From: an uncultured Chloroflexia bacterium
Lineage (GTDB): Bacteria; Chloroflexota; UBA6077; JACCZL01
DNA: 64,000 nt
Assembly: GCA_963765765.1 (NCBI GenBank)
Contig: CAVXYC010000007.1
Coordinates: 1 to 64,000 of the forward strand
Reading direction: 5' to 3'
The position numbers and the translations under genes are program-made. Shown here in pieces: positions 121-45,226 of the stretch (the stretch's first letter is position 1; each line of letters starts with the position of its first letter). The notes under the pieces were generated by a model that was not told the DNA's origin, ran no database searches, and saw nothing but the letters and a program-made list of their open reading frames with translations.

Positions 121-190
121 CCTTGTCAAGTCTGCTGGCCTGACCGGAAACGGTTCCGATAACCACGTCAATGGTGACTTATCTGGAACC
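121..190 (-). repeat. Terminal element, inverted homologue of 45159-45226
   Basis: The reverse complement reads GGTTCCAGAT...GGTTATCGGAACC-N21-CTTGACAA, the same layout as 45159-45226. Confidence 0.6.
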
Positions 191-226
191 AGGGAGATTT
201 GAACCAGCCTCGAGTTGGCCCGGTTC

Positions 227-252
227 GTTCCGATAATGGCCGTTATCGGAAC
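227..252. repeat. dif-like site
   Basis: GTTCCGATAA-TGGCCG-TTATCGGAAC. Confidence 0.85.
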
Positions 253-270
253 ATCGACCGCCCCGGGTGA

Positions 271-1294
271 CTACTGGATGACTTCGGTTGCTTGCAGGAG
301 GACCGACTGCGGGATGGTCAGCCCCAGGGCCTGCGCTGTTTTGAGATTGATGATGAAGTCAAAATCCGTGGGCCGCTCCATCGGCAGGTCGCCGGGTCGG
401 GCACCTCGCAGGATTTTGTCCACGTACGGTGCTGCACTCCGGTAGATCGCGGCTCGACTCGAGCCATATGTCAGCAAGCCTCCCGCCCGAGCGAACTCCG
501 GAACTTCCGCGATCGACGGCAGCCGATACTGGAGCGCTAACTCGGCGATGCGTTCCACGCAGAGTCGAACCTGGCGTTGCGGAGAATATTGAGGGCATCA
601 GCGCCGGCTGTGGACATGGCCGCGAACGCGTCGTCGAGGCCGCTGATGTTCGGCATGGCGACCACGTGAAGGTGTACCCCGGGCCGGGCGCGGCCTCCTG
701 GAGCGCCCGCACGCGTCGCACATCCGAAGCCGAAGGGTTCTCTGCGCTGCCTGGACGGAGCACGGCTACACGGGAGGCGTGCGGGACCGCTTCCTTCAAT
801 AGTTGCAGCTGCTTGCCTACCAGTTGCGGCCCGCTTATGCCGGCCGTCCCCGTGATGTTCCCGCCGGGCCGCGCGATGTTGTCGACGAGCCCGATCTCGA
901 TTGCATCCTCGCTGACCAGGATCGCCACGAGCGGGACGGTGGCGGTCACCTGCTTGGCGGCGAGGATCCCGTCGACGACGCCACTACAATCAGCTCGACC
1001 TTCTGCTGGACGAGCTCGGTCGCGAGCGCCCGATACCGTTCGGTGTCTCCTCGGTCCAGCGGGACTCCACGGCGAGGTTCGGCCCTCCACCCAGCCCAGC
1101 TCCCGCATTCCATCCAAGAACGCGTTCCAACGCCCGCCAGGCGCGTCGCCGAGGACCCCGATCAGGCGCACCCGCTCGGACGTTGGGGCCTGGGGAGGGA
1201 GCAGTCCGCAGCCGGCCAGCAGACCGAGGCTGGCCACGGACAGGCCAGCCCTCAGGAATCGGCGACGGGTGCTCGATGGTTCGAGTGGCGTCAT
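271..1294 (-). CDS. Orphan ABC transporter substrate-binding protein (ABC_sub_bind / Trp-Tyr type), frameshifted
   Basis: Tat/lipoprotein-like leader RRRFLR...LLAGC, motifs NIARPGGNITG and YVDKILRGARPGDLPMERPTDF; split across frames. Confidence 0.85.
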
Positions 1295-1412
1295 GATGGC
1301 GCTAGTGTACGCCCGCGTGGTGCTACAAGGCAGTGACGGTGTCGTCAGCAAGGACCAAAGATGTGAAACCGAGTCTGGGCTGCCCTTCTTTCGCTGAGTC
1401 CTAGGCAGGCAC

Positions 1413-1436
1413 GGGCCGACAATGGGTTATCGGCCC
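1413..1436. repeat. dif-like site (variant, short spacer)
   Basis: GGGCCGACAA-TGGG-TTATCGGCCC; flanking DNA is homologous to the site at 35901. Confidence 0.7.
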
Positions 1437-1629
1437 GTGCGCTTCCCAAGAGGCGCGCGTCCTCATGCATCTGATGCGCGCCGGCCCGCCCACGAGGTTG
1501 GCGATGGGCCCTCGTCGTCAAGGACGGGCGATCCGGCACCAATTCGGTACGATTCCGAGCGCCGACTCTGTCCCGAGGACGTTTCGACAGGCTCGGGGAT
1601 TCTGAAGCGGCAGGTCGTTAAGATCGCGC

Positions 1630-1652
1630 TGACCGCCAATACTCACGGGAAC
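1630..1652 (+). promoter_or_regulatory. Repeated promoter/leader motif
   Basis: TGACCGCCAATACTCACGGGAAC, identical to 2633-2655. Confidence 0.6.
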
Positions 1653-1678
1653 CCGATCTCAGTGCGGGGAGCACCGGC

Positions 1679-2635
1679 ATGACCGAGTATCTCTTCGACA
1701 ACGCGGCGCCCGAGGTGGCCCGGCGAATTGACGCCCTGGCCTCGCTCTACGACCCGATCACCGCGCGGCATCTCGAGGCGCGCGGTGTGGCCGATGGCTG
1801 GCACTGCCTGGAAGTCGGGGGCGGCTCCGGCTCGGTGGCCGCCTGGCTCGCCCGGCGGGTGGGGCCGACCGCAGGGTCGTCGTCACGGACATCGACCCGC
1901 GGCATCTGGAGGCGCTGCAGGGGCGGCCTCGCGAACGTCGAAGTGCAGCGCCACGATGTCACCGCGGACTCGCTGGAGGACGGCGCCTTCGACCTGGTGC
2001 ACGCGCGGCTCGTCCTTGGACACGTGCCGGCCCGGCGCGAGGCGCTCGGCCGGATGGCCGCGGCGCTGCCGGCCGGGCGGGTGGCTGGTGGCCGAGGATT
2101 TCGACCTGCGCTTCGCCGACCCGACCTGGGCCACCGAGGCCGGGCGTTCGCCGCGCTCTATGCGAAGATGCAGGACGCGCTGATCCGACTCCTGGAATCG
2201 CGCGGCGCGGACCCCGAGTGGGGTCGCCAGCTCCCGGCGGCCCTGCGCACCGTGGGAATGTGGGACGTCGGGGCGGAGGGGCGCATCGCGCTCGCGCCGG
2301 GCAGGTCGCCCTCGGCCGGGCTCTATCGGGCGAATATCGAGCAGGTCCGGGCGGAGGCGGTGCGGGCGGGACTCATCGCCGACGAGGAGGTGGACGAGCT
2401 GCTCGACGGCCTGGACGATTCGAACATCGCAGGGAGCACCCGTGTGATGATCAGCGCGTGGGGCCGACGACCGCCCGGCGGGACACGGTGGCGGCGGATG
2501 CTGCACCCCCGGTGCTGGTATGCGAGTACGGGAACCGCGAAGGATCGTCTGATAAGGCGGATTATCGGAAGTTCCAACTCTTGGAGGTCTGCTAGGAGGA
2601 GCCGCGGCGGCTGCATGTTGACAGTCCTGCGATGA
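1679..2635 (+). CDS. Class I SAM-dependent methyltransferase, frameshifted (homology probably ends near 2480)
   Basis: CLEVGGGSGS motif I, FDLVHARLVL and C-terminal MISAWGRRP. Confidence 0.8.
   Translation: MTEYLFDNAAPEVARRIDALASLYDPITARHLEARGVADGWHCLEVGGGSGSVAAWLARRVGPTAGSSSRTSTRGIWRRCRGGLANVEVQRHDVTADSLEDGAFDLVHARLVLGHVPARREALGRMAAALPAGRVAGGRGFRPALRRPDLGHRGRAFAALYAKMQDALIRLLESRGADPEWGRQLPAALRTVGMWDVGAEGRIALAPGRSPSAGLYRANIEQVRAEAVRAGLIADEEVDELLDGLDDSNIAGSTRVMISAWGRRPPGGTRWRRMLHPRCWYASTGTAKDRLIRRIIGSSNSWRSARRSRGGCMLTVLR
2546..2571. repeat. dif-like site
   Basis: CGTCTGATAA-GGCGGA-TTATCGGAAG. Confidence 0.7.
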
Positions 2636-2655
2636 CCGCCAATACTCACGGGAAC
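2618..2655 (+). promoter_or_regulatory. Sigma70-like promoter TTGACA-N17-AATACT
   Basis: Exact -35 box and 17-bp spacer upstream of the hydrolase ATG at 2677. Confidence 0.6.
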
Positions 2656-2676
2656 TTGATCTTCGGGAGGCTGGGC

Positions 2677-2793
2677 ATGGCCACCTTTGTCCTCGTCCAT
2701 GGCTCGTTTGGTGGCGGCTGGTGCTGGAAAAAGCTCGTGCCGCAGCTTCGCAATGCGGGGCACGAGGTGTACGCTCCCACGCTCAGTGGCCTG
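2677..2793 (+). pseudogene. Alpha/beta hydrolase (esterase) N-terminal fragment
   Basis: MATFVLVHGSFGGGWCWKKL...YAPTLSG, truncated after about 39 aa. Confidence 0.8.
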
Positions 2794-2796
2794 CTC

Positions 2797-2902
2797 CAGA
2801 GAGCAGAATCGGGCATCGTCAGTCCGATCGCCTGAGCTGTTCTAAGATTGATGGTGAAATCGAATGTACTGTGCTGCTCAACAGGAAGGTCCGCAGGCGT
2901 AG
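2797..2902 (-). pseudogene. C-terminal remnant of an ABC substrate-binding protein
   Basis: PADLPVEQHSTFDFTINLRTAQAIGLTMP matches the SBP C-terminus. Confidence 0.75.
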
Positions 2903-2906
2903 CACA

Positions 2907-3923
2907 ATGTCTCAGCTCCAAGACGTACGCAGGCGAGATTTCCTGAGAGTCAGTCTGGCCGCGGCGACTGGCTTGCTGGCTGGCTGCGGGCTGGTATCAC
3001 CACTCTCCTCGCCGCGCCAGCCGGCGAGAGTCCATCGCTTGGGCTGGCTGTCCGGCGGCGGGGCGGACACGAATACGCCATCGCTCGAAGCCTTCCGACT
3101 GGGGATGCGCGACCAGGGCTACGTCGAGGGCCGCGACTTCACCCTGGAGACGCGCTGGGCCATGGGGCAGCTCGTTCGCCTTCCCGAGCTGGCCGCCGAG
3201 CTCGTGGGCATGCCCGTCGACGTGATCGTGACCGCCGGGGCCGGCCCTATCCGCGCCGCGATGCGTGCAACCACTAGCATCCCCATCGTGATGGCAGAGA
3301 CGAACGACCCGGTGGAGGACGGCTTGGTGGCCAGTCTCGCACGGCCGGGAGGGAACGTCACCGGGCAGACCAGCATTGCCCGCGAGCTGATCGGGAAGCG
3401 ACTGGAAGTCCTGCGAAGGACACTCCCGTCCGCGTCACGAGTGGGCGTTTTCTGGAACCCCGAAGCCAACCAGGCCGGCCAGTTGCAGATAGCGGAGGCC
3501 GCGGCCGGCCCCCTGGGGCTGACGCTGGTGCCGCTGGAGGTGCGTGAGCCCACCGCCATCGAGGGCGCGTTCCAGCGGGCGGTGCAGGAGCGGGTGGATG
3601 CGCTGACCCTGGTAGACAATCTCGTGCTCTCGAGCAATGTGGCGCGTGTGGGCGGGCGGGCGCTTGCGCACCGGTTGCCGATGGTGTCGACCGTCCAATT
3701 TGTTGAGGCCGGCGGACTGATCGCCTACGGGGCGAGCTTTGAGGAGCTGTTCCGCCGCTCGGCGTCGTACGTGGACAGGATCCTGAAGGGCGCCAATCCG
3801 GGCGATCTGCCCGTGGAGCGGCCGGAGAAATTTGACCTGGTGATCAATCTCACCACCGCACAGGTGCTGGGCCTAACAATTCCTCAGTCGGTCCTTGCCG
3901 AGGCGACGGAGATCATCCAGTAA
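2907..3923 (+). CDS. Orphan ABC transporter substrate-binding protein (ABC_sub_bind type)
   Basis: RRRDFL leader, LLAGC, SLARPGGNVTG and YVDRILKGANPGDLPVERP. Confidence 0.9.
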   Translation: MSQLQDVRRRDFLRVSLAAATGLLAGCGLVSPLSSPRQPARVHRLGWLSGGGADTNTPSLEAFRLGMRDQGYVEGRDFTLETRWAMGQLVRLPELAAELVGMPVDVIVTAGAGPIRAAMRATTSIPIVMAETNDPVEDGLVASLARPGGNVTGQTSIARELIGKRLEVLRRTLPSASRVGVFWNPEANQAGQLQIAEAAAGPLGLTLVPLEVREPTAIEGAFQRAVQERVDALTLVDNLVLSSNVARVGGRALAHRLPMVSTVQFVEAGGLIAYGASFEELFRRSASYVDRILKGANPGDLPVERPEKFDLVINLTTAQVLGLTIPQSVLAEATEIIQ

Positions 3924-3975
3924 CCCCACGAGTCTTTCTTTCTACGTCTCTTTGCTCGTTCAGCTAGGTTGGCTC

Positions 3976-4001
3976 GTTCCGATAATGGGGGTTACCGGAA
4001 C
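3976..4001. repeat. dif-like site
   Basis: GTTCCGATAA-TGGGGG-TTACCGGAAC. Confidence 0.85.
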
Positions 4002-4041
4002 TTCAAAAGCATCACCTATCTGACCGCTGCTGGGTCGCAGG

Positions 4042-4902
4042 TTATTGCTCCACCCAGCCGAGAGCCGTCACGCCGAATCCAGCCAGAAAGGCGTCCGGGT
4101 GGTTCCCCCAAGCCTGAACTTCCGCTGCAAGGAGGTCCATCCTGTCCCGATCAGCCCAGCCCTGAGTGGTCACGAGCTCGATGAACGCGGGCGTCGTGAT
4201 CTGCTCAACAAACCAGGCCGCGAAGTCGTGGGTGTGCTCGTCGGTCCCGTACACGCCGATGCACCCGAGACTGGCCCCTGCGACCGGACGCGCAAACCCG
4301 GCTTCGCGGAGAAGTCGGCGGTGGTGCCGTGGGCGGTACGGATCTCCCCCGTGGTGTTCCACGGCGCGGCGAAAAATGCGCTCGACCTCTACAAGGCGCG
4401 GTGTGCTCGGCTCCCACAGCCACGTTCCCATGTCGTCGTCGGCAATGCCGACTACCCCGCCAGGGCGAAGTACCCGACGCATCTCCTGAACCGCCCGTGA
4501 CGGATTAGCAAGGTGCACAAGCAAGTTGTGGGCGAAGACGGCGTCCATGCTCCCGTCAGGGAAAGGAAGCTCGTATACCGAGCCGCGCTCGAGTCGCAGA
4601 TTCGAAATGCCCTGACGCGCCGCCAATGCTCCAGCGCGCTCGAGCTGTTCAGCCTGCAGGTCCAGTCCGATCACCTCACCCGGAGCAACCAGCGTCGCCA
4701 GTCCGACCGTGATGGAGCCGGGGCCGCAGCCGCAATCGAGCAGGCGCATGCCAGGGCTGAGATGTGGGGCCAGGAAGCCCGCGGAGGTTTCGGCAGTGCG
4801 GCGCTCGAGCCGTCGCTGTTCGGCGGCGGTGGTCGAGTGCACATACCGAAGCTTGCGCCCGTCGGGCGAACCTTCGTCCGATATGGACTTTGATCGGCTC
4901 AT
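4042..4902 (-). CDS. UbiE-like SAM-dependent methyltransferase
   Basis: LLDCGCGPGSIT, LPFPDGSMDAV and RRVLRPGG. Confidence 0.9.
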   Translation of the reverse strand: MSRSKSISDEGSPDGRKLRYVHSTTAAEQRRLERRTAETSAGFLAPHLSPGMRLLDCGCGPGSITVGLATLVAPGEVIGLDLQAEQLERAGALAARQGISNLRLERGSVYELPFPDGSMDAVFAHNLLVHLANPSRAVQEMRRVLRPGGVVGIADDDMGTWLWEPSTPRLVEVERIFRRAVEHHGGDPYRPRHHRRLLREAGFARPVAGASLGCIGVYGTDEHTHDFAAWFVEQITTPAFIELVTTQGWADRDRMDLLAAEVQAWGNHPDAFLAGFGVTALGWVEQ

Positions 4903-5016
4903 TGCACCCTCCCCCAATCACCATCGCTGGGTCACTCGGATGGACCCCAGCATAGCTCACGGGCGATCGCAAGGGTCAACTTCACCAAATGGTCGTCCAT
5001 CGTGGTCGGCCGGGCC

Positions 5017-5043
5017 CTTCCGATAATCTGGAGGTATCGGAAC
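5017..5043. repeat. dif-like site (7-bp spacer)
   Basis: CTTCCGATAA-TCTGGAG-GTATCGGAAC. Confidence 0.7.
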
Positions 5044-5084
5044 GAGCCGTTTCCAGTAAACCGGTTGTGGACTCTGCCCTGATG

Positions 5085-5113
5085 TTGACAGGCCAGTGCT
5101 GATCGCCAATACT
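5085..5113 (+). promoter_or_regulatory. Orphan copy of the TTGACA-N17-AATACT promoter
   Basis: TTGACA-GGCCAGTGCTGATCGCC-AATACT with no downstream + strand gene. Confidence 0.5.
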
Positions 5114-5189
5114 CTCGGAGACCGGCGGCGCCGCGGTAAATGACGATTGCCGAACGGACAGCATGACGAGCGATTGCCGCGGCTACGAG

Positions 5190-5963
5190 TCAGATTGACG
5201 AACTCGCCAACCATCTATCGAGAAGGGCGCCATCGCCGAAGATCTGCAAGCGCTCATGGTGGGGCTTGCGCCTCCCGTACAGCAGCAACAGCATGTTGGA
5301 AGCGGTAGCCCGTACTGCCACATCGCCCTTCGCGTGGCCATGCTCCCAGCTAAACCCATCGGGATTCAACTGAATCAGCCACTCGCCATCGGCATCGGTG
5401 CAATGAAAGTGCAGAGTCTCGCCGGCACCCTTTAGGTTCTTGATGACGGGTGAGAAGGTTGCGAAGGGAAGGTTTTCCAGGAATTCGTCGACGCCGTCTA
5501 CGGCCACCACTGCATCAAACTCCGGCTCCAACCCGAGCGCCAGCTCGGCATCGGCCCGGTGTACCGCGGTCTCGTGGAGTTGGCGACGTGACCAGAACCT
5601 GGCGTGCTGGTCAGCACCCCAGGACCACGTGGGTTGATCGGGATCGGCCTTCCGTAACGCGTCCTGGAGTGCCTTACCGCCGGACCTGAACCAGCCCACG
5701 ATCTCGCTCGGCTCGTCCGGAAAGCGCAAGTCCAGATCCCCATGACTTAGTCGGCGAGTCATGCCCTCCGCGACCATCCGGCCCGACCAGCGATGAATCC
5801 CACCCACGTGCTTCACCAGACCGGCCAGGTCCCACGGCGGGCATGATGGTACGGTTGCCGCCAGATCCGCCCTGTCAAGGACAGTCGCGAAGCGCTCCAG
5901 CTCGGCTGCCAGGGCATCACAGCACTCCGTGTGGTTCACGCTGAAATCCTCCCATCGAGGCAT
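5190..5963 (-). CDS. Maleylpyruvate isomerase family (MDMPI, DinB-like) protein
   Basis: VPSCPPWDLAGLVKHV, RRQLHETAVHRADA and LLLYGRR. Confidence 0.85.
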   Translation of the reverse strand: MPRWEDFSVNHTECCDALAAELERFATVLDRADLAATVPSCPPWDLAGLVKHVGGIHRWSGRMVAEGMTRRLSHGDLDLRFPDEPSEIVGWFRSGGKALQDALRKADPDQPTWSWGADQHARFWSRRQLHETAVHRADAELALGLEPEFDAVVAVDGVDEFLENLPFATFSPVIKNLKGAGETLHFHCTDADGEWLIQLNPDGFSWEHGHAKGDVAVRATASNMLLLLYGRRKPHHERLQIFGDGALLDRWLASSSI

Positions 5964-6447
5964 TACGCGATCTCTGCGACGTTCACCAGGTCCTGTCGGC
6001 GACGGCTGTAGTCGAGTATGAAGTTGAGGCTTGCCAACATTTGCACGTCGGTCGGCTTTAAGGGCATGCGCAGTCCTTGCGGTATGGCACTGTGTTCAAC
6101 GGGCTCAATTGGGTGTTCCCATTGTTCAGTGCAGATTACGGCCGGGCACCGTCGGAGTCAATCTAGCGAGGAGCCTAGTCTCTACCCGCCCGTTAACGTG
6201 ACGATGGTGCGGCGCGTTCACTTTTAGAGGAGCTGCCGGCGCCAAACCTTGCAGACGGAGCCGACCCGCTCATCTGCAACGTTCTCGGCTTCCTGTTTGG
6301 CATCCGGCGCACCCTCACCAACGAGGCCACGGGGCCGACAAGCGGCGACCAGACGCTGGCGGCGACCCGGGGTACGTGAGCGTAAACCGAAGATAGTGTC
6401 TTGAGCGAGATCCGTCATAGCGTTCGAATCAGTGACCGTAGCCTGTA

Positions 6448-6732
6448 TTAGTGGCTGCCGCAGTGCGCGCGAAAGCGTGCTTGAACCGTGCCCGCACCGC
6501 CATGCGTGAGCACGACCTCGCACCGCGGGAGCAGGAGCGACTGTGGAATGCAGCGTGCCACATGCGCATTCGCCGGCACGGAGCCGAGCGCAGCCGGTTT
6601 GGCGTCCGGGCCCAGGGTCAGGATTTGATTTGAGGAACAGAGTGAGGATGCGGAGGCGGTTGCACAACTCGCTGCGGCGCTGGCCCAGGTGAACGATGAG
6701 ATGGATCGCCGGATCGCCGAGGGCTGAGGCAA
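6448..6732 (-). pseudogene. GT1/UDP-glycosyltransferase C-terminal fragment
   Basis: PANAHVARCIPQSLLLPRCEVVLTHGGAGT signature without an intact N-terminus. Confidence 0.7.
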
Positions 6733-7033: not shown

Positions 7034-7125
7034 ATGTGTGGACGCTCCACGCTGGGTGATCCCAGCCCCCTGATGCGCCGGTTCGGCCTCGAAGAGTCTG
7101 CCGAGACGGACGTGAGGCCGCGTCG
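7034..7125 (+). pseudogene. SRAP N-terminal fragment
   Basis: MCGRSTLGDPSPLMRRFGLEESAET, a near copy of the start of the gene at 12084. Confidence 0.8.
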
Positions 7126-13029: not shown

Positions 13030-13335
13030 GCGTTGTTCACTCTCGGGGCGGTCGACGCTGATATTGTGCAGGCACAGGGTACTCAACTCAAGCAGCGACG
13101 GGTGGCGCTCGAGAGGAACCTCGTCGAATTACGGAAGGACGTTGACGCACCGACGAGTTCGGTTGATCAGGCCCAACTTGACCGAATCTGCAATGCCATT
13201 GGGGCATGGGTAGACCGCGCCGACGATCAGGAACGCATACAGATTTTGGAAGCACTCCAGATCGCGGTTCGGGCAACGCCGGAGTACGCGGAAGTGACCG
13301 GAGTCATCCCCAACCAGGTAGAAGGCTATTTACCG
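13030..13335 (+). pseudogene. C-terminal remnant of a large serine recombinase/integrase
   Basis: Coiled coil then ADDQERIQILEALQIAVRAT..AEVTGVIP, typical of LSR tails; reads into the dnaN end; no catalytic domain. Confidence 0.65.
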
Positions 13336-13342
13336 GGCAATA
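13327..13342. mobile_element. Candidate attR overlapping the dnaN stop codon
   Basis: TATTTACC|GGGCAATA; the island half supplies the dnaN TAA. Confidence 0.65.
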
Positions 13343-14481
13343 TGCATCGGCATAACAACGTGGAAGTAGTTGTCCGCGTCGGGGCCGACGGGGCGGAGGA
13401 TTCCGGGGCTGGTGGGACCGGTGAGCTGGAGAGTGACCTGGCCGGTGTCGATGGCGTCGAGGGCCTCGCGCAGATAGCGGCCGTTGAAGGCGACTTCCAT
13501 GGTGTCGCCGTCGATGCTCGCGTCAAGCTCTGTGGTATTGTCACCGATCTCGGCGGCGCTGGAGCTGACAACCACCTGACCGATAGCAAGTGACTCTTCG
13601 GGCGGCTTGATGGCCAGGCGGACAATCATGGCATTATCGCGCGCGAATACCGAAGCGGCGCGGGTCGCCTGGAGGAGGTCGGTGCGGCCCAGGACAACCT
13701 TGGTGTTGGCCTGTTGGGGGATGATGCGCTGATAGTCTGGGAACTGTCCTTCTACTAAGCGGCCCGTGACTTCGATGGTGCCGAAGCTGAATTGGATCTG
13801 GTTCTGAGAGGGCGTGGCGGCGACCTGAACGTGCTCGTTCTCGATGTCGGGCAGGACGCGCGCCACTTCGCCGAGCGTACGGGCGGGGACGATCATGTTG
13901 AGCTCTTCCGGAGCGGCGCCCTCGGGGAGCATCATTCCGCGCACGGCCAGACGGAATCCGTCCGCCGCGGCCAGCGTCAAAATGCCTTCCTTAACCGTCA
14001 ACAGCACGCCCGCGAGCACCGGACGGCTATCGTCCTGTGCCGCTGCCAGAGCAACCTGACCGATGCACTTCTTGAGCAGGCTTGTCTCCATAATGAAGCC
14101 CGACTCACCACTCACGCTGGGGACGGGCGGAAAATCTTCTGCATCGATCCCGGCGAGGTGCGCTTCCTGTCGGCCACAGACGAGGTGAACGCGACGCGAG
14201 CGGGCGTCAAGCTCCAGATCGATCTTCTGACCTTTCTGGAGCAGACCGACGTACTCGGAGAGGACTCTGGCCGGAAGGGTAATCGCGCCTTCGGCCTGAA
14301 TCTGCGCACCGATGTAGCAGGTCATGGCCATCTCGAGGTTGTTGGCCACCAGCTTGAGGCGGCCGCCCTCGGTCTCGAGCAGAATGTTGGACAGCACGGG
14401 GAGCGTCGTGCGGGTAGGCACTACTCGACTCAGTGAGGCGAGTGCCTCGGCCAGGTTCTCTTGAAGACACGAAAGTTGCAT
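13330..14481 (-). CDS. dnaN: DNA polymerase III subunit beta
   Basis: MQLSCLQENL, AADGFRL, EGQFPDY, AFNGRYL and VVMPM. Confidence 0.97.
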   Translation of the reverse strand: MQLSCLQENLAEALASLSRVVPTRTTLPVLSNILLETEGGRLKLVANNLEMAMTCYIGAQIQAEGAITLPARVLSEYVGLLQKGQKIDLELDARSRRVHLVCGRQEAHLAGIDAEDFPPVPSVSGESGFIMETSLLKKCIGQVALAAAQDDSRPVLAGVLLTVKEGILTLAAADGFRLAVRGMMLPEGAAPEELNMIVPARTLGEVARVLPDIENEHVQVAATPSQNQIQFSFGTIEVTGRLVEGQFPDYQRIIPQQANTKVVLGRTDLLQATRAASVFARDNAMIVRLAIKPPEESLAIGQVVVSSSAAEIGDNTTELDASIDGDTMEVAFNGRYLREALDAIDTGQVTLQLTGPTSPGILRPVGPDADNYFHVVMPMHIAR

Positions 14482-31734: not shown

Positions 31735-31736
31735 TC

Positions 31737-35900: not shown

Positions 35901-35926
35901 GTTCCGATAACCCCCATTATCGGCAC
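35901..35926. repeat. dif-like site
   Basis: GTTCCGATAA-CCCCCA-TTATCGGCAC. Confidence 0.85.
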
Positions 35927-36022
35927 CGGTGCCTGCCTAGGGGCTCAGCGAAAGACTGGGCAGATTGCTCGAGCGAGCTCACTCTGCGTTGTGGCACCAC
36001 GCGGGCGTACACTAGCGCCATC

Positions 36023-37047
36023 ATGATGCCACTCGGTCCGCCGGCACCCGTCGCCGCTTCCTGAGGGGTGGCCTGTCCGTGGCCGGCCTCGGTCTGCTGG
36101 CCGGCTGCGGGCTGCTCCCTCCCCAGGCCCCAACCTCCGAGCGGGTGCGCCTGATCGGGGTCCTCGGCGACGTGCCTGGCGGGCGTTGGGACGCGTTCTG
36201 GGATGGACTGCGGGAGCTGGGCTGGGTCGAGGGCCGGAACCTCGCCGTGGAGTCCCGCTGGGCCGAGGAGGAGACACCCAACGGTATCGGGCCCTCGCGA
36301 CCGAGCTCGTCGAGCGGAAGGTCGAGCTGATTGTAGTAGGGGCCTCGGTGGTGGCGGTCGCCGCCAAGCAGGCGACCGCCACCGTCCCACTCGTGGCGAT
36401 CCTGGTTAGCGGGGAGGCAATCGAGAGCGGGCTCGTCGACAACATCGCGCGGCCCGGCGGGAACATCACTGGGATTGCCGGCATAAGCGGGTCGCAACTG
36501 GAAGGCAAGCAGCTGCAACTCTTGAAGGAAGCGGTCCCGCACGCCTCCCGTGTAGCCGTGCTCCGCGGGCAATCCCGAGCCTTCTTCGAGCTCAGAGCGC
36601 CGCGTGCGGGCGCTCCAGGAGGCCGCGCCCGGCCTCGGGGTACACCTTCACGTCGTCGCCGCGCCGAACATCAGCGGCCTCGACGACGCGTTCGCGGCCA
36701 TGTCCACAGCCGGCGCTGATGCCCTCAAGATTCTCAACCACACCCAGTTCGGGACTGCGTTGGGACGCATCGCCGAGTTAGCGCGCCAGTATCGGCTGCC
36801 GGCTATCAGCGAATATCCGGACTTCGCTCGGGCGGGAGGCTTGCTGGCCTATGGCTTGAGTCGAGCCGAGATCTACCGGAGTGCAGCACCGTACGTGGAC
36901 AAAATCCTGCGAGGTGCCCGCCCTGGCGACCTGCCGATGGAGCGGCCGACGGACTTCGAGTTCGTGATTAACGTCGGGACAGCGCAGGCCCTCGGTCTGA
37001 CGATTCCTCAGCCGCTCCTTGCTGAAGCGACCGAGCTGATCCAGTGA
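36023..37047 (+). CDS. Orphan ABC substrate-binding protein, frameshifted; close paralogue of 271-1294
   Basis: Shares GLLAGCGLLPPQAPTSERVRLIGVLGD and YVDKILRGARPGDLPMERPTDF. Confidence 0.85.
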
Positions 37048-37153
37048 CCTCGTTCCAGTCCGGACTAACCGAGATCATCCATGAGGCGCATGCCTGATCC
37101 GCGCCGAAGCGGGCGGTATGGGCGTCGGGAAATGAGCTATCCACGCATCATTC

Positions 37154-37179
37154 GTTCCGATAACCCCCATTACCAGAAC
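37154..37179. repeat. dif-like site
   Basis: GTTCCGATAA-CCCCCA-TTACCAGAAC; possible degenerate second copy at 37185-37210. Confidence 0.8.
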
Positions 37180-37233
37180 CGCCGGATCCTGTAGCCCCTA
37201 TTACGAGACCAACTTGGCTGCAGCCCGTCATAG

Positions 37234-37872
37234 CTAAACGCGACAAAGCAGGGTCAACGACGCCAGAAGCAATTTGACTCGGCCCTGGATGTCATCTCGG
37301 ATCTCGCGTACCTGCTCGATTGGCAATCCTTCGGGATCGGCAATCTCCCAATCTTCGTAGCGCTTGAACGGGTACACCGGGCAGGCATCGCCGCACCCCA
37401 TCGTGACGATCACGTCGGCCACCTGGACGACTTCGTCCACCAATGGCTTCGGAAACTCGCGCGACAGGTCGAGCCCTACTTCAGACATAGCGCGGACCAC
37501 CACGGCATCGAGCTCCTCGGCGGGGGTGCTGCCAGCAGAATGCACACCCACGACTCCGTTGCTTAGATCGCGCAGAAAGGCCGCGGCCATCTGGGACCTA
37601 CCGGCGTTGCGGCTGCAGATGAACAGCACGTCGGCGCTTTCTTTCTCAAGAGGCTTCGCAAGACTTACGAGCGCTTTCAGCCGTTCGCGCGTGAAGCGGT
37701 AGACGAACATAGGGACGTAGTTCACGATCCGAACTTGTCCCAGGCATCTCTGGGACTCATAAGCACATTGTTCGATGGTCTCTTCCGAGAATGTCCCTCG
37801 AAATTCGTATGACAACCGCTCAATCTCCGCCTGGATCGCACGCTCGAGATGGAATTGGAACGGCTCGTTCAT
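37234..37872 (-). CDS. arsC: Arsenate reductase (LMW-PTP fold) with an N-terminal helical extension
   Basis: FICSRNAGRSQMA, TMGCGDACP and DPEG. Confidence 0.9.
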   Translation of the reverse strand: MNEPFQFHLERAIQAEIERLSYEFRGTFSEETIEQCAYESQRCLGQVRIVNYVPMFVYRFTRERLKALVSLAKPLEKESADVLFICSRNAGRSQMAAAFLRDLSNGVVGVHSAGSTPAEELDAVVVRAMSEVGLDLSREFPKPLVDEVVQVADVIVTMGCGDACPVYPFKRYEDWEIADPEGLPIEQVREIRDDIQGRVKLLLASLTLLCRV

Positions 37873-37926
37873 CGTTCCGTCCTCCCGCCGAGACACTTCG
37901 GCAAGCAGCCCTTCACTCCCATGGCA

Positions 37927-38351
37927 TCACTCCGACCCCAGAAACTCATCCGTGATCCGCTGGCGGATGGCATCGCGAACAGCGCGGTACATCTGCATCT
38001 GCTCCGCTTCGTTTCCCGTCGCTTTTGACGGATCCGGAAAGCTCCAGTGCAGTCGTCGCTTGGCGCCGAAAAACACGGGCAGGCCTCGTTGGCCTGATCG
38101 CACACCGTGATTACCGCGTCGAATGGCTGGTCGAGATAGCGGTCGAGTGTCTTGCTCTCCTGAGCGCTGATGTCGATATCCAGCTCGCCCATGGCCTTGA
38201 TGGCCAGCGGTCGCACGCGCGTGGCTTCCGTCCCCGCGGAATACACGTCAAACTGCTCCCCGCCGAGTCCTCGCAGGAGCCCCTCGGCCATCTGGGAGCG
38301 CGCCGAATTGTGGGTGCAGAGAAAGAGCACACGCTGTTTGGTACTCATCAT
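37927..38351 (-). CDS. arsC: Thioredoxin-type arsenate reductase, frameshift near 38080
   Basis: [26 protein letters not shown] and HWSFPDP in the second frame. Confidence 0.88.
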
Positions 38352-38383
38352 GGCTCACCTCCGTTCGTGACTCTGAACCGCGC

Positions 38384-39241
38384 CTATGCTGCGCGGATTG
38401 CATTGAGCTCATCGGTTCCTCCATTGCCTCGTCCGCCGTATGCGGCAGGAGCGATCTGATTCCGTACTGGTAGAGAGCTGCCCCCGCTACGGCCCCTAGA
38501 CATGGGCCCACAAGGTAGATCCAGAACCCGCCGCGGGGGCCAGGAATCGCGATGCTGCCAAATCCCACGGCCCAGGCGACCAGCCGGGGGCCAAGATCGC
38601 GGGCTGGATTCCATCCCGCCTGGGTGATGGGCGCAAAGAGGCAGATCAACAACGCCACTGTGAAGCCGATGAAGAACGGCACCATGCCCTCCGGCGTGAC
38701 GCGGTTCTTTGGATCCGTAAGGGCGAAGATCACCAACACCAGAATCGCCGTTCCGAATGCTTCCACAAGCATCGCCTCGAGCGGCGATGTCAACGCCTGG
38801 GCGTCGAGGCCCGTGCCGAAGATTGCTGGATTCGGGAAGTACTGGCCAAAGATCATCGCCGCGCGCTCGCTGCCTGGCGCTCCGCGGGTGAGCCCCTCCT
38901 TGGCCTCGAAACGCGCAAGGATACGGCCCCCAGACAACGAAAACAACCAGTCCGGCGGCGATGGCGCCCACGAACTGCGCGAGCCAGTACGGAAGCATCC
39001 GTCGGGCCGGGAAATCATCGCGACGGAATAGCGCAACTGCCAGCGTCACCGCCGGATTCAAATGAGCGCCCGAAAGCGTGGCTGAGCAATAGATCGCCAG
39101 GGACACGCCAAAGCCCCAGACAACGGCCACCTGCCACAACCCCTGGAGCGCTCCCGTGAGCACGGCCGTGGCCACGGAGCCGATCCCGAACAAAACCATC
39201 AGAAAGGTGCCCAGGCACTCGCCTGTCAGCGCGGCTCGCAT
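38384..39241 (-). CDS. MIP-family aquaglyceroporin (GlpF/AqpS-like arsenite channel), frameshifted
   Basis: SGAHLNPAVT and NPARDLGPR motifs; lies between arsR and arsC. Confidence 0.88.
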   Translation of the reverse strand: MRAALTGECLGTFLMVLFGIGSVATAVLTGALQGLWQVAVVWGFGVSLAIYCSATLSGAHLNPAVTLAVALFRRDDFPARRMLPYWLAQFVGAIAAGLVVFVVWGPYPCAFRGQGGAHPRSARQRARGDDLWPVLPESSNLRHGPRRPGVDIAARGDACGSIRNGDSGVGDLRPYGSKEPRHAGGHGAVLHRLHSGVVDLPLCAHHPGGMESSPRSWPPAGRLGRGIWQHRDSWPPRRVLDLPCGPMSRGRSGGSSLPVRNQIAPAAYGGRGNGGTDELNAIRAA

Positions 39242-39311
39242 AGCACCGACGCATCAATGGGTGTTGATATATGAGCCCGAAGAAAGCGGATGGCACTCAT
39301 TTGGTCTATAC

Positions 39312-39676
39312 CTACGAACAACCCGCCGGCCCGCACTCGGCCGTGCGGTCGCCAATCGTGGCTGGATCGAACAGCCCGGTCAGCTCCTGGTGGATCAGGG
39401 CGAGCCGGTCAGCGTCAACGCGGTAATAGATCCAGCGCTGATCCACTGGATCCCGTCGTCCTTGCACCAGGCCGGCATTGCGGAATTGGCGCAGGTGGTG
39501 GCTTATCAGATTCTGCGGCAGCTCGAGCTGTTCGGCCAGTTCACAGTTGCAGATTTCACCCGCCATAAGCGCGAGGAAAATACGGCGCCGCGTCGGATCG
39601 CTGATCAGCCGCAAGAACTCTGCGGAGGTCGGCGAAGCATCCGGCCGCTGGGTAGTGAGACGGGTAATTCAACCAT
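39312..39676 (-). CDS. arsR: ArsR/SmtB family regulator
   Basis: SDPTRRRI, EICNCEL, QNLISHHL and WIYY; N-terminal frameshift. Confidence 0.85.
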
Positions 39677-39736
39677 TATTGATATTGTGCGCCGAATCAC
39701 AGCTAGAGTGCAAATCACCTGACCTTGACCGCTCTT

Positions 39737-39756
39737 ATATAGACATTCATCGATAT
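39737..39756. promoter_or_regulatory. Candidate ArsR operator
   Basis: Imperfect palindrome ATATAGACATTCATCGATAT upstream of arsR. Confidence 0.55.
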
Positions 39757-39797
39757 TATCCCCTTGAAGGCGGTATAATTTGACCAACAGGGACGCA

Positions 39798-40592
39798 TCA
39801 GCTACGCCATGCGACCTCTCTGATGACGTCTTCTACGCATCGGAGTTGTTCACGCAAACAATCGGGGACCGGCTCGTTCGGGGCAAGTCCCTCGCTGAAG
39901 GCTACGCCCAGCGTCACTATGGGCTTCATATCCACTTGGCCCCTGCTACCGAACTGAAACAGCAGTTCTGGTGTATTCAGCTTGAGCGGTCCTCCGGGAT
40001 GGACATACTCCCAGTCCGGGAGGATGGCGGCTCCATCGTGGCCGACAGCGAGGTTTTCAAGATCGATGACCGCCAGATTCAGATTCTTGTGCTTGTCGTC
40101 GATGTCCATCGAGTGAAGCTGGGCGAGTCGTTCTCGGCTGGGCAGGAAAGCATCCGCATCGGAAAACTCTTGATACGGCTGCAAGCTCTCGATGAATGCT
40201 TGTACGGCATCGGGAAGCAAGCGGACCGCGTACTTGCCGCATGTTCGTTGCAGGGCACCCTTCTTGTCCCGTTTCTCCCAATTACCTTTGTGGGACAGGA
40301 TTGGAAACGCTGTCCACTCGGGGGCAGATTCCCGCCTGCTCGAAATTTCGTAGACGATGTGATCCAGAGCGGATCGCATGTTGTGGACGGCATCGCCGGC
40401 GGCCAGAGCGATGTGATCGGGCAGTTCCTCCGAGAGCTTGATCCACACGCGCAATTTCCCCGGCTCACTCTCGGTATCCGGGATGATTTGGCAGGGTTCT
40501 CCTTGGATGAACTCGGTGGCTGCGGTTACCGCGTCCGTGAAGTGCTTGTATGCCCGATTGACCTTGAGTCGCCACGAAGGTACGGTGCTCAT
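39798..40592 (-). CDS. Hypothetical protein, possibly HEPN-like
   Basis: LKVNRAYKH, GDAVHNMRSALDHIVY, IESLQPY and DIDDKHK motifs. Confidence 0.7.
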   Translation of the reverse strand: MSTVPSWRLKVNRAYKHFTDAVTAATEFIQGEPCQIIPDTESEPGKLRVWIKLSEELPDHIALAAGDAVHNMRSALDHIVYEISSRRESAPEWTAFPILSHKGNWEKRDKKGALQRTCGKYAVRLLPDAVQAFIESLQPYQEFSDADAFLPSRERLAQLHSMDIDDKHKNLNLAVIDLENLAVGHDGAAILPDWEYVHPGGPLKLNTPELLFQFGSRGQVDMKPIVTLGVAFSEGLAPNEPVPDCLREQLRCVEDVIREVAWRS

Positions 40593-40633
40593 GCTTTGAT
40601 GTGTCTCGCATCGTGAACGGGGTGGAGTTTGCG

Positions 40634-40863
40634 ATGTCCCAGCAAGTCATAGTGTATTCACAACCGGGTTGAATGTTCTGTAACAAGGTGAAAGAGTTTC
40701 TTCCCAACGAGGCGTGAATTACGTTGAACGAAACGTCGCGGAAGATGAGCAGGCGCTGGAAGAGCTGACGGCGCTTGGCTATATGACGACTCCGGTGGTG
40801 AAAAATCGACGACCACTTAGTGATCGGCTTCGATCGTGCTCGTCTCGAGGAATTGCTCGCTAA
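40634..40863 (+). CDS. Glutaredoxin/NrdH-like protein with in-frame UGA (probable selenoprotein, UxxC)
   Basis: MSQQVIVYSQPG-TGA-MFCNKVKEFL...YMTTPVV.IDDHLVIGFDRARLEELL; two homopolymer indels; absent from the ORF track. Confidence 0.8.
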
Positions 40864-40986
40864 GAGGGCTTCCCTCGCTTTCTGTGGCGGTCGCGGTCGT
40901 GGTCGCGACAGATCGTAGTCTCCAAAACGGAAGCATCTAATTTCTCTGTCATCCAACTATCCGCGCCTGTCGAATACTTACTGTCC

Positions 40987-41194
40987 GCGCCGCCGTACGC
41001 GGCATACACTCGTCCGAAGTCGGGTCGGACTGGAATGTCGGGATGACTCCGTAGGCGACCAGTACCATGGCCCCTATAAGCCCAAAAGGCCATGGGCGTC
41101 CTTCCCGCAACCACTGCCACACCAGCCAGCCGCCGCCGATTTCCGCGAGGCCCGCCAGCGCGAAGAGCGCCAGGGCGCGGGCAATGTCAGGCAT
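40987..41194 (-). pseudogene. ynfA: YnfA/UPF0060 membrane protein, 3'-truncated
   Basis: [19 protein letters not shown]...[10 protein letters not shown], then homology is lost. Confidence 0.75.
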
Positions 41195-41592
41195 GGTGGC
41201 CGAGCTGCTGCATGCGGTCCCAGGTGTCTTCCAGGCTCCAAACCTCTGATAAGCGCCCGTCCAGCACGCGGAAGATGAAGATTTCGTGCACTCGCTCCAT
41301 GCGCTTGCCCGTCGCAGGCTGGCCGATGAATGGTCCCCGCCTGGGTCCCCGAGCATGTGCAATGGGCCACGACCCGATCGCCTTCCACGATGAGTTCGAC
41401 GATGTCCTGACGCCAATCTGGAAACGCTTGAAGGAATTCGGTAAACGCGTCTCTGAAACGGTCTGCAAGCGCCGGCGCGCATAGTTCCTCGAGCACTTCG
41501 AATCGTCGCTCGTTCATTGCCTCCTGAACCAAGCGGCGGACAAGGGCCTTATTTGACTCGGTTTCCAACATCTCTCGCTCAGGAGTGTTCAT
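41187..41592 (-). CDS. SnoaL-like ester cyclase, frameshifted
   Basis: NKALVRR, AFPDW, EGDRVV and PATGK. Confidence 0.85.
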
Positions 41593-41624
41593 GCGCCTAT
41601 TGTTGCCTATAGCTACTGTGGTTC

Positions 41625-41650
41625 GTTCCGATAACCCCCATTATCGCAAC
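41625..41650. repeat. dif-like site
   Basis: GTTCCGATAA-CCCCCA-TTATCGCAAC. Confidence 0.85.
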
Positions 41651-41795
41651 GTGTCGAGCGTGGGCGAGAGCTCGGCGTTCTTGCCTTGAGACCGTGAGCC
41701 AGATGAGCGGCGAGAGAGCCCACCCACGAGGCGCCTTGTTGGCGCGAAGTGGAGGGCCCTTCGTCGAGCTCGGTGGGGCTCGGGCGCGGTCGAGA

Positions 41796-42740
41796 TCAGG
41801 CCGAGAGGGCCTGGGCGGCGCTGCGGATCTTTCCGGGCCATCCCGCGTGATCTCTTCCACGAGCTTGACCACCTGCGGATGCTCCAGACCCGAGACCAGG
41901 AAGGTCCAGCGCCAAGCGTGCAGCGTCTTGGCGCTGATCTCCTGACGCTCGGACTCGGTGAACCCGCGCCCGGTCGCTGCCTTGTAGCGCGTCGATATTC
42001 AGGGCGATCTGCTGCTGCAGCAAGCCATCGATGGCACCACCCAGCTCGAGCACCTCGTCGATCGCTGCCTCGCGCTGCGCCAGCGGCATGTCCTCGACCA
42101 TCTCGGCGATGAGCATCGTGTCGATCTTGGCGTGCTGCGCCTCGTCCAGCCAGTGATGCCGCAGCAGGTCGCGGAACAGATCGTCGAGGTCGGTCTTGTT
42201 CCGGACATGCTCCGTGTAGTGGACCTGCACGAACCACTCGATGATGTTGATCAGGAGCAGCACCGCGAGGTCGGACTTGCTCCGGACCACCTCCGCGACC
42301 GCTTCGCGCCCGGGGATCAGCCCTGGGGTGGCGCCGAACTGCTCGGTGAACAGGTCGATCGAGCGACGGAACATCTCCTGGTGCTTCAGCTCCTCCTCCG
42401 AAAAGCGCAGGAGTGAGCGCTGTCGCACCTCGTCGCCGTAGGGATTCTGCAGAACTTCTTCGGTGACGGTAGGAACGATGAACTCCTCCACGAAGGCAAA
42501 GAGGTGGCAGTACGCGTTGCCCATGATCTGGTTCAGCATGCGCTTCTCATCGTCGTCGAGGCAGGCGATCGCGTCAACACCGCTGAGGCGGTCGGGCAAA
42601 AAGCGCTTCGAGAGATCGAAACGCCGACCGTTGAGGACCTCGTCTTCCTGCCAGGCAACCTTCTTCGAATTCTCGAGCACGTTCCCAAACGTGTAGTTGT
42701 GGGTGACCATCGGGGTCGGTGCCAGTGTGGTGGTTGTCAT
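41796..42740 (-). CDS. Ferritin-like diiron protein (AurF-like), frameshift near 41985
   Basis: VEEFI, EELKHQ, IEW and HWLDEAQHA ExxH ligands. Confidence 0.75.
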   Translation of the reverse strand: MTTTTLAPTPMVTHNYTFGNVLENSKKVAWQEDEVLNGRRFDLSKRFLPDRLSGVDAIACLDDDEKRMLNQIMGNAYCHLFAFVEEFIVPTVTEEVLQNPYGDEVRQRSLLRFSEEELKHQEMFRRSIDLFTEQFGATPGLIPGREAVAEVVRSKSDLAVLLLINIIEWFVQVHYTEHVRNKTDLDDLFRDLLRHHWLDEAQHAKIDTMLIAEMVEDMPLAQREAAIDEVLELGGAIDGLLQQQIALNIDALQGSDRARVHRVRASGDQRQDAARLALDLPGLGSGASAGGQARGRDHAGWPGKIRSAAQALSA

Positions 42741-43532
42741 GATGTGGATGTCCTTCCCTCGGGCCCGCGGCGCGGGACCGGAATGCGCTCGGTGGTCGTC
42801 ATGCCCTGTGCGATCGAATCGACGGCCGTGGTCGCCGATGAGTGGAGCCTCGCGGCGGGCGTCCAGGCCGTCGCGATGATTTCCTCCGGGATGAAGATCG
42901 GACGGTCCTGCCGGTCGCTCTCTTCGGTGGCGGCTCAACCGTTCGTCACCGTCACTCTAGGGAGCGTCCGTCTCTTACTCGTCCCCCGGCGCGTCCCCTA
43001 CCGTGTCCTTTGCGAGGAATTTCGAAATTGGTCTGGAATTCCTTGGTGAGGACCTTGACATCAAGTGGTTGCCATAGGGCCTGCTCCTTTCTGGCCAGTG
43101 GCCGGTCGCACGAGGTAGAGCCCGCCTTCCGGATTGGCGGCTGGTCGCGTACCTGACCGTGCGGCGCGCCCCGCGGTTCGGTTTTCCACGAGCCAACCCA
43201 GGGAACTCGCGTCCCCGGGGATTCCCTCCACGCGCGGCAAGCCAAGCAACTCCGTGGTCATGTCCGGGCGATCATCCGTCTCGTCGTCGGGCTCGCCCTG
43301 GTAGACGAACGGGACCCGCGATGGACGCAAAGGCGGCGCATGGCACACCGGAACGGCCATCTGGCCCGCGCGCTTCGACGCCGGCCCGCCACATCGGGCG
43401 CGGTTGGTGCGGCGCGGTCTCTCGGCGAGGCCCGAATCGACCGGCCGATGTGGCCCGAACGCGGCGACGAGCGTGCATCCATTTCGGGTCGGCGTCGTCT
43501 ACAGGAGCGAATCCGACCGAAAAGGAGCCACC

Positions 43533-44154
43533 ATGACCACACCGACGACCAGCCAGCCGACCAGAGAGTTGCAGATCGACTTCTTGTTCCTCGATCTCGA
43601 CACCTGCACCCGCTGCCGAGCCACCGATGCGACGTTGCTCGAGGCAATCGAGCGTACCCGCCCCGCTCTCGAGGCCGCCGGTGTGGTGGCCCGCGTGACC
43701 AAGACCCTCGTCTCGAACGAGGCGGCGGCACACGAGCTCGGATTCGTCAGCTCGCCCACGATCCGGTCGATGGCGTCGACATCGCCGACGAGCTGGTCGA
43801 GAGCGCCTGCGACACGTGCAGCGAGGCCTGTGGCTGTCCCGGTGGTGTCGACTCCAGGGACTGGGTCTACCGAGGCGAGCGGAGCACCGAGCCGCCGCTG
43901 GGTCTCATCGTCGAAGCGATCATGCGCCGAGCGCTCGGCGCCGACCCCGCCGGCTAACACACACCAGAGCCGGGACCCCGCCACGTGCCGACGAACCTCC
44001 GCCGGCTATTTCGCGGCTGCGGCGGCTGCCACACCGGCATCCGACTGTTGCCCACCGGGACGTCCAAGCCGACTGCTGCATGCCCGAGGACAAGGCCGCC
44101 TGTTGTGGCAGCGGGGCGGGGTCGTCATCCTGCGGCTGCGGCGCTGGGCACTGA
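43533..44154 (+). CDS. DUF2703-like thioredoxin-fold protein with a Cys-rich tail, frameshifted
   Basis: IDFLFLDLDTCTRC, GFVSSPTIR and tail DCC...ACCGSG..SSCGC. Confidence 0.75.
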
Positions 44155-44160
44155 AGTATC

Positions 44161-44826
44161 ATGAGTGCCATGATGGCCGCCCCCACGGAGCTGACTGATG
44201 CGCGCAACGAGGCGCTGCAGGCTATGCGCGCGCGACTGCGCGCATTCATTGAGCGCAGGGTCGGGGATCCCGATGTCGCCGAGGATCTCACGCAGGACGT
44301 GTTACTCCGCCTGCTGATGAACGACGACCGCCAGATCGAGAACCCCACAGCATGGCTCTACCGAGTCGCGCGAAATGCGATCATCGACCACTACCGCACT
44401 CGCCGCGACTGGCGTCCGCTTGAGGCCGATGCCCCGACCCCGCCGAGCCTGGCCGAGGACCCGTTTGCCGACGACTCGCAAGAGGCCAACGCGAGCTCGC
44501 GGGATGTCTGCGCTCGCTCGTGGACCAACTCGCCGAGCCCTACCGATCGGCGTTGATCGACGCTGACCTCACCGGACAGACCCAGGCCGAAGCCGCCCGA
44601 TCGGCGGGTGTGAGCGTCTCCGGGATGAAATCGCGGGTGCAACGTGGTCGCCGCTCGCTGCGCCAGCTCCTCACCGAGTGCTGCCGCGTGTACACCGGGC
44701 CCGCGGGCGGAATCAGGGGCTACGAACCGGCGCCGGCTGTGGAGAGTCGCCGCAGGGCGGGGGCGGCGTCCCGGGCCACTGCGGATGCGCGGGCACACCG
44801 CCGTGAGCCGAGGGAGCGCCGGCTAG
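44161..44826 (+). CDS. ECF RNA polymerase sigma factor (SigZ-like), frameshift near 44490
   Basis: AEDLTQDV, WLYRVARNAIIDHYR and SVSGMKSRVQRGR..L..LL..CC. Confidence 0.85.
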
Positions 44827-45094
44827 GCCTTCCGGGGTCGAGCACGCCCGAGCGGCGGGATCGTCGGCGAGGCGTTCATCGAGCGCCGGGCGCACCGCCT
44901 GGGATCAAGTCGCGCCGGGGGCGGCTCGATTTGGAACGACTGGCAGCTTGCACCTTCCCAGCGTCGCGCGGTCAACGTGAGCTGCATCCGGAAGGCCATT
45001 CGCTCCTAGGCACCCGGCGTCGATCCGGACTGAGCATCAGGGCCATCGGGCGTGACCGCAACGCCCATCGACCCACCAGAGACTTTTGAAACAG

Positions 45095-45120
45095 GGTCCG
45101 ATAATCCCCATTCTCGGAAC
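45095..45120. repeat. dif-like site
   Basis: GGTCCGATAA-TCCCCA-TTCTCGGAAC. Confidence 0.8.
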
Positions 45121-45158
45121 TACCCGCCAATGATTCGATCTCGGAGTCGATCTTCGTT

Positions 45159-45226
45159 GGTTCCAGATGTGGCCCGCGACCGCGGTTATCGGAACCGATT
45201 TGGACCAGACTATAGGGCTTGACAAC
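45159..45226 (+). repeat. Terminal element, homologue of 121-190
   Basis: GGTTCCAGAT...GGTTATCGGAACC-N21-CTTGACAA. Confidence 0.6.

Follow-up and report, generated by a model that had tools for sequence, protein, structure and literature searches.

The window analysed here, 64 kb of DNA from the start of contig C7 in a 6.49-Mb, 33-contig assembly of an uncultured Chloroflexia bacterium, contains two islands of gene cassettes bounded by dif-like sites, and both islands end in the same architecture of ~130 bp, composed of a dif-like site, a wide inverted repeat (IR) and the element CTTGACAA. This terminal architecture probably duplicates the conserved region 5' of a Xer-like tyrosine recombinase gene, the two window copies representing gene-less, orphan platforms. 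The unit shares homology with the regions in front of such genes, has a fixed geometry and is linked to the recombinase gene; its occurrence at array ends is real and general in this genome. It is primarily a recombinase-gene front, and forms an array end only in this genome.

Two terminal units in the window

The original prediction described a dif-like site, a spaced pair of half-sites and a further short motif, at conserved distances, at the end of each array. Direct reading of both segments confirmed this description, and the features are as follows.

Copy A, island 1
227-252, minus strand: terminal dif-like site of 11-6-11 layout, arms GTTCCGATAA / TTATCGGAAC, centre CGGCCA
152-190, minus strand: wide IR, GGTTCCAGAT-N16-GGTTATCGGAACC, with the half-sites of the dif arms; ATAA-N16-TTAT, 10 bp wider than the dif-like site
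123-130, minus strand: CTTGACAA, 21 bp past the IR, matching in alignment the recombinase-promoter -35 box of intact loci
1-64, minus strand: conserved block (TACAACG..ACGGTTACC..), then the first part of a reversed dnaN 3' end, which the contig end cuts off

Copy B, island 2
45095-45120, plus strand: terminal dif-like site, two arm mismatches to the consensus
45159-45196, plus strand: wide IR with an N15 spacer, one base shorter; left arm degenerate, GATG for GATAA
45218-45225, plus strand: CTTGACAA, 21 bp past the IR, homologue of the -35 box
45283-45349, plus strand: conserved block, followed by a truncated dnaN 3' end in reverse; no similarity beyond ..CCGGACAATA

Internal dif-like sites
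2547-2570, 3977-4000, 5018-5042: island 1, bounding methyltransferase and ABC_sub_bind cassettes
35902-35925, 37155-37178, 41626-41649: island 2, bounding ABC_sub_bind, ars-like and AurF-like/DUF2703/extracytoplasmic function (ECF) sigma cassettes

The dif-like site and the IR are separated by 36 bp in copy A and 38 bp in copy B. Each IR pattern has exactly one match in the window and none in 100 shuffles, and the dif-like pattern gives 14 strand matches (seven sites) against a mean of 0.07 in the shuffled sequences. The sites fall into two islands, at 228-5042 and 35902-45119. The orientation of each terminal unit had also been predicted to agree with that of most sites in its island, and this is borne out by the asymmetric centres, which are co-oriented within each island: those at 228, 2547 and 3977 are of the ATGGGGG type, as in copy A, and those at 35902, 37155, 41626 and 45096 of the CCCCCAT type, as in copy B.

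Conservation continues for ~170 bp past CTTGACAA, reaching window positions 1-64 and 45283-45349. Position 1 is the start of contig C7 and falls inside this repeated conserved stretch beyond CTTGACAA of copy A. Many genes in the assembly are split by single frameshifts (among them ABC_sub_bind, MIP, SnoaL, DUF2703, ECF sigma factor and PhoX), and one-base differences consequently require cautious reading; the N15 versus N16 spacer difference between the two copies may itself be an indel error.

The recombinase gene behind the platform

On contig C30 a dif-IR unit is followed, after ~130 nt, by a gene encoding Phage_int_SAM_1 and Phage_integrase domains. The locus runs from an ABC_sub_bind cassette through the dif-like site and the IR to the recombinase gene, which reads away from the cassettes. 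The best NCBIfam models for the C30 recombinase are XerC, XerD and XerA, all below their cut-offs, and each scores higher than the integron-integrase model TIGR02249 (109.9 bits, cut-off 265).

The survey started from the recombinase, in 66 genomes of the class, 401 of the phylum and one metagenome scan, and the upstream regions were then read. Relatives of the C30 recombinase were found in three genomes of the class and seven of the phylum sample, the latter at nine places, as well as on two metagenome contigs. The family is also a large one in metagenomic data, where at least 1,785 of the 8,000 candidate proteins scored pass E <= 1e-40. Ten recombinase loci were assessable, one G112 copy cut by a contig end having been excluded, and at eight of them (C30, L088, L089, L090, L091, L092, L093 and L094) the IR and, at the same distance from it, a TTG box are present upstream. 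A clear dif-like site lies 100-250 nt upstream of the gene at seven of the ten, all of which belong to these eight. The locus in genome G029 lacks the unit, and its gene lacks the N-terminus.

Searching the contigs of other genomes with the IR pattern returned nine loci, where a rough estimate gives ~6 by chance. One of these, L050 in a Tepidiformaceae assembly, adds a ninth case: its dif-like site, IR and TTGCAA-N18-TATAAA precede a gene that shares 42% identity with the C30 protein at the N-terminus. At L052 the IR is present with no recombinase downstream. Five others (L047, L048, L051, L053 and L054) were judged to be chance matches, lying by eye within apparent coding sequence. The viral contigs searched contained neither an IR match nor a relative of the recombinase. 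Other Xer-like genes in this genome are located at C29:41451 and C10:277094; the latter (C10:277094-277561) lacks an IR and is preceded, ~60 nt before its open frame, by a canonical-looking dif with unlike arms and the centre TGCTAA.

Geometry of the half-sites and the promoter

The IR region was aligned over 23 sequences. The arms align in all 23, with a spacer of the same length in 19 and one base shorter in four, and the T and G of the TTG box, 21-23 nt past the right IR arm, are conserved to at least 90%. The half-sites of the dif arms recur as the IR arms, there set as ATAA-N16-TTAT instead of ATAA-N6-TTAT and thus 10 bp, one helical turn, further apart. Moreover, the half-sites of the two elements change together in L088, where both read CCGAACC, and in L093.

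In a second alignment, combining the G112 recombinase loci with six modules from this genome, the columns of both pairs of arms (dif and IR) and of TTGAC are invariant. Homology between the modules and the G112 fronts runs from the dif-like site to TTGAC and then stops. A promoter scan of L094 returned TTGACC-18-CATAGT, identifying the conserved TTGAC as the -35 box of that predicted promoter. Several intact loci have, by eye, a further TTGACA-type box between the dif-like site and the IR, and TATAAT in the left IR arm, for which the promoter scan made no call. In the window copies and seven others in the genome the recombinase gene is gone, homology to the intact loci ending just past the -35 box, and these copies are therefore recombinase-less ("orphan") platforms.

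Platform copies across the genome

The unit is not confined to the two ends from which it was predicted. Pattern search and alignment place ~16 platform copies in the genome, mostly at the same end of dif-site arrays. The loose dif pattern has 48 genome matches, mostly clustered, on nine contigs, and the IR pattern has ten. The copies differ in completeness:

C1:3.1k, C1:191k, C23:468.6-469.1k (two in tandem), C6:22.6k, C6:36.6k, C15:607.6k and the two window copies: nine full modules, aligning from the dif-like site to the dnaN copy
C10:49k, C27:88k: only the dif-like site and the IR kept
C30:95k, C20:552k: diverged type of unit
C23:204.7k: another diverged type of unit
C1:19790, C27:48703: truncated copies, divergence beginning inside the IR spacer

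Among ~10 clusters with at least two dif-like sites, nine have the unit, whole or truncated, at the expected end. In the tandem pair (L008, C23:468619-469087) the linker of the second module follows ..CACCGGGCAATA immediately, and no dif-like site separates the two.

Proposed mechanism and its rivals

In the mechanism that we propose, the dif-like 11-6-11 core site would be the crossover point at which cassettes are joined. The IR would be a second pair of half-sites, 16 bp apart as against 6, to which recombinase subunits could bind; being too far apart for a normal crossover, its arms may form an accessory site that orients or loads the enzyme, an operator, or both. The -35 box of the gene promoter would lie 21-23 bp beyond the IR, and autoregulation by the recombinase is conceivable. 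The complete form would then consist of cassettes, core site, accessory half-sites, promoter and a recombinase reading away from the cassettes. The orphan platforms mark the fixed ends of their arrays and, if they work at all, could be docking or insertion points used in trans by the C30 recombinase.

A wider reading, possible but offered tentatively, is that of an integron-like Xer-family capture system in Chloroflexota, built on a composite platform of a dif-like crossover site, a half-site pair one helical turn wider and the promoter of the enzyme itself. Through the wider pair the enzyme would be loaded or oriented and its expression coupled to whether the sites are occupied. Gene-less copies would have spread in one genome as satellite docking sites for an enzyme supplied in trans, and the mimic of the dnaN 3' end that caps each one may attract a second integrase.

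Several observations weigh against the recombinase-front explanation. The promoter scan, run on both strands, returned no complete consensus promoter at either window copy, and the left IR arm of copy B is degenerate. About half of the platform-adjacent dif-like sites are likewise degenerate by eye, which fits decay rather than use. The genome has only one recombinase of this family, the C30 gene, and a frameshift, possibly a sequencing error, splits it. Upstream of the closest ortholog, in G001 (87% identity), there is no platform. Crossover across a 16-bp spacer is not known, and the role assigned to the IR is thus a guess. The array at C23:452-457k, with seven sites, lacks the terminal unit. 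Finally, genomes G089, G112 and G121 have the platform and the gene with a single dif-like site and no array, so that arrays are not a general property of the unit.

These observations also qualify parts of the original prediction. A dedicated array end is an apt description of nearly all multi-site clusters in this genome, the C23 array excepted, but the motif is not tied to arrays, given the three genomes just named, an outcome that the prediction had itself listed as refuting. The proposed accessory half-sites stand as far as their identity with the dif arms in the alignment goes, and a recombinase could bind them. The suggested -35 box agrees with the predicted promoter of L094, to which TTGAC aligns; the window copies lack a complete promoter.

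The strongest competing explanation, which we nevertheless regard as unlikely, is that the orphan copies are nothing but relics. A single ancestral deletion would have taken away the recombinase gene, and the resulting junction of ~290 bp would have been copied along with the arrays and have no present function. In its favour, the breakpoint past the -35 box and the foreign 170 bp that follow it are common to all nine full modules, many dif-like sites and left IR arms are degenerate, and the window copies lack a complete promoter. What speaks against it is that CTTGACAA, the right IR arm and the spacer length are nearly invariant, whereas the linkers have diverged to ~60% column identity. The copies moreover sit in unrelated contexts with sharp borders on both sides, which calls for a site-specific copying process. 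As for an empty counterpart of island 2, G007 is not syntenic and G001 is too fragmented and diverged for comparison.

The dnaN-like far end

In the nine full modules the ~170 bp past CTTGACAA hold a conserved block and finish in a motif that reads, on the opposite strand, as the final 11-13 codons and stop of dnaN. The only full copy of dnaN in the assembly lies in the window:

13327-14481 (also given as 13333-14481), minus strand: dnaN; its last codons (..VVMPMHIAR) and stop are what the far ends of the modules copy in reverse

The individual tblastn matches of the dnaN end are weak (E = 0.21-31), and a 24-base motif has ten genome matches. Positions of the dnaN-end motif are 13327-13350, 1-20 and 45329-49 in the window and C1:3336, C1:3508, C1:191048, C6:22424, C6:36483, C15:676289, C20:11276, C23:468625 and C32:296889 elsewhere. 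In total about a dozen reverse dnaN-end copies are present in the genome, several keeping both frame and stop codon, and those at C15:676k, C20:11k and C32:297k are remote from any platform. At C1:3336-3531 (L001) two inverted dnaN-end copies flank a segment of ~150 bp, which recurs at C32:296.7-296.9k (L011) and in part at C1:191k; the bracketed segment has the look of a small repeat element. Near arrays or dnaN-end copies, at C1:183950-185300, C20:13350-14750 and C20:548300-549450, are three phage-type integrases with Phage_int_SAM_3 and Phage_integrase domains; they are paralogues, 45-57% identical, and all three are frameshift-split.

These features suggest a different origin, namely that the unit is the attachment-site arm of an integrative island targeting the 3' end of dnaN. 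The dnaN copy would be the att core, which keeps the essential gene whole, and the IR and the conserved blocks would be arm sites. The far ends are consistent with such an island in that the 11-13 codons copied have a uniform border, frame and stop being kept in five copies, and in that two junctions, the C23 tandem and window position 45349, break at the same ..CAATA. At C20:13k and C1:184k a phage-type integrase is found 2-6 kb past a dnaN copy, and native dnaN is followed by a similar short CCGGTTTATCA segment in G008 and in the unpublished G006. The dnaN loci themselves tell otherwise. The real dnaN of this genome has no module, and its downstream flank is unrelated. Neither a dif-like site nor an IR was found within 1.5 kb of dnaN at any of 11 dnaN loci of relatives; dnaN was absent within 1.5 kb at all 30 loci with homologues of the phage-type integrase, and was not found near the Xer-like gene in other genomes. 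In 40 other genomes examined for the module, only its dnaN part matches, in four of them. Taken with these absences, an island at dnaN appears decidedly improbable, and the 5' flank of a recombinase gene remains the preferred origin of the unit.

Still less probable, to the point of being remote, is a promoter and operator for a small RNA or leader transcribed outward from CTTGACAA, with an unrelated regulator binding the IR. The -35-like box is conserved and is followed by ~110-170 nt of partly conserved sequence, but Rfam matched nothing in the window at gathering score and only at chance level (one match, E = 3.1) within 44900-45600, RNAalifold predicted no pairs over nine copies, and neither a conserved -10 box nor, by eye, a conserved small open reading frame was found past CTTGACAA. 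Extragenic palindromes of the repetitive extragenic palindrome or bacterial interspersed mosaic element kind, or terminators unrelated to recombination, would account for short perfect palindromes at gene ends and deserve almost no credence, the ~48 loose matches being few and island-clustered, with the ATAA-N6-TTAT layout of dif, centres all co-oriented within an island, no T-run at the palindromes and a tight link to a tyrosine recombinase gene.

Comparison with known recombination systems

In the integron platform, extra IntI-binding repeats lie beside the core site of attI. The locus at C30 has the same order of parts (cassettes, core site, extra recombinase-type sites, promoter region and a gene reading away), and the attI-type position between recombinase gene and first cassette is occupied there, but not in the window, where the gene is absent. 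The attI-like reading of the original prediction thus appears partly supported: the C30 geometry resembles that of attI and intI, but the window copies have no gene and the unit is primarily a recombinase-gene upstream region. The platform system is not an integron, since the C30 enzyme is Xer-like rather than of the IntI type and the cassette sites are double-strand dif-like 11-6-11 palindromes of 26-28 bp rather than folded attC sites. The promoter scan of the window copies returned, on either strand, no consensus promoter that could act as a Pc directed at the cassettes, and the adjacent cassette genes are not co-oriented with the platform. Most arrays here lack a recombinase gene, as do clusters of attC sites lacking integron-integrases (CALINs), and the window copies are comparable to an attI lacking its intI.

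In the XerS/difSL and XerH/difH systems the recombinase gene sits beside its site. The present loci are similar in having one Xer-family gene with a dif-like site directly upstream, and the near-palindromic arms suggest a single enzyme here also. They differ in that the site is multi-copy (~48 loose matches), in that the gene is rare (7 of 401 phylum genomes) and so not housekeeping, and in the second, wide half-site pair between site and promoter. At cer and psi, ~180 bp of accessory DNA bound by PepA together with ArgR or ArcA provides extra conserved DNA on one side of the core site. The one-sided conserved DNA of the platform could likewise give directionality; here, however, the accessory element consists of recombinase-type half-sites overlapping the promoter region, not of PepA, ArgR or ArcA sites. 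Integrative mobile elements exploiting Xer (IMEX) are stacked at the single chromosomal dif at the terminus, whereas the present arrays occur on at least nine contigs and a canonical-looking dif lies separately at C10:277k.

To our knowledge, integrons are the only well-studied system with a fixed cassette-collecting platform. Modules bounded by Xer sites are known mainly from Acinetobacter plasmids, and we know of no dedicated platform or enzyme for them. The unit described here is a defined, conserved platform for a Xer-family enzyme, present in several Chloroflexota lineages and on metagenome contigs. It occurs in nature in three forms, one with the gene, one lacking the gene and one lacking an array. 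How a Xer enzyme could become a cassette collector is thereby open to experiment, through parts that lend themselves to direct tests (core site, wider half-site pair and promoter), and the finding bears on how integron-type systems may arise from dimer-resolution machinery.

The Acinetobacter dif modules (PMC6449649, PMC11705084) are gene modules bounded by Xer-type 11-6-11 pdif sites and associated with XerC/XerD. The likeness lies in the Xer-type boundaries and in one module, ABC_sub_bind in our case, recurring in many contexts. Their arms are distinct and their orientation alternates, whereas here the arms are alike and each array has one orientation; furthermore, the present arrays lie within long contigs in a genome assembly and are terminated by a dedicated platform that comes from a recombinase front. 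The literature searched, at the level of titles and abstract openings, shows Acinetobacter dif modules and Pseudomonas integron-like elements, and describes no such Chloroflexota platform.

Cassette content and assembly

Among 11 public sequencing runs listed, none is recorded as RNA; four of the DNA runs yielded only contigs of ~150-460 nt at low depth, with none of the four joints listed at a dif-like site, and are uninformative on expression or excision. In the assembly itself PhoX (window 45513-47517) and many other genes are each split into two overlapping frames, which suggests indel errors throughout.

The ABC_sub_bind (PF04392) cassette is present at window 273-1351 and 35902-37178 and in at least ten other places at 83-91% identity, for example C27:48904, C1:192562, C17:130765, C20:550854 and C30:95128. 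It is mostly bounded by dif-like sites and is frequently the platform-adjacent cassette. Between two dif-like sites at window 37178-41626 lies a 4.4-kb cassette encoding ArsR, a MIP channel, two LMWPc phosphatases, SnoaL and UPF0060, several of them frameshifted. Parts of the last cassette are repeated elsewhere at 95-96% identity, window 41788-42716 at C1:99841-100769 and window 44586-45012 at C15:594858-595292, and look like recent copies.

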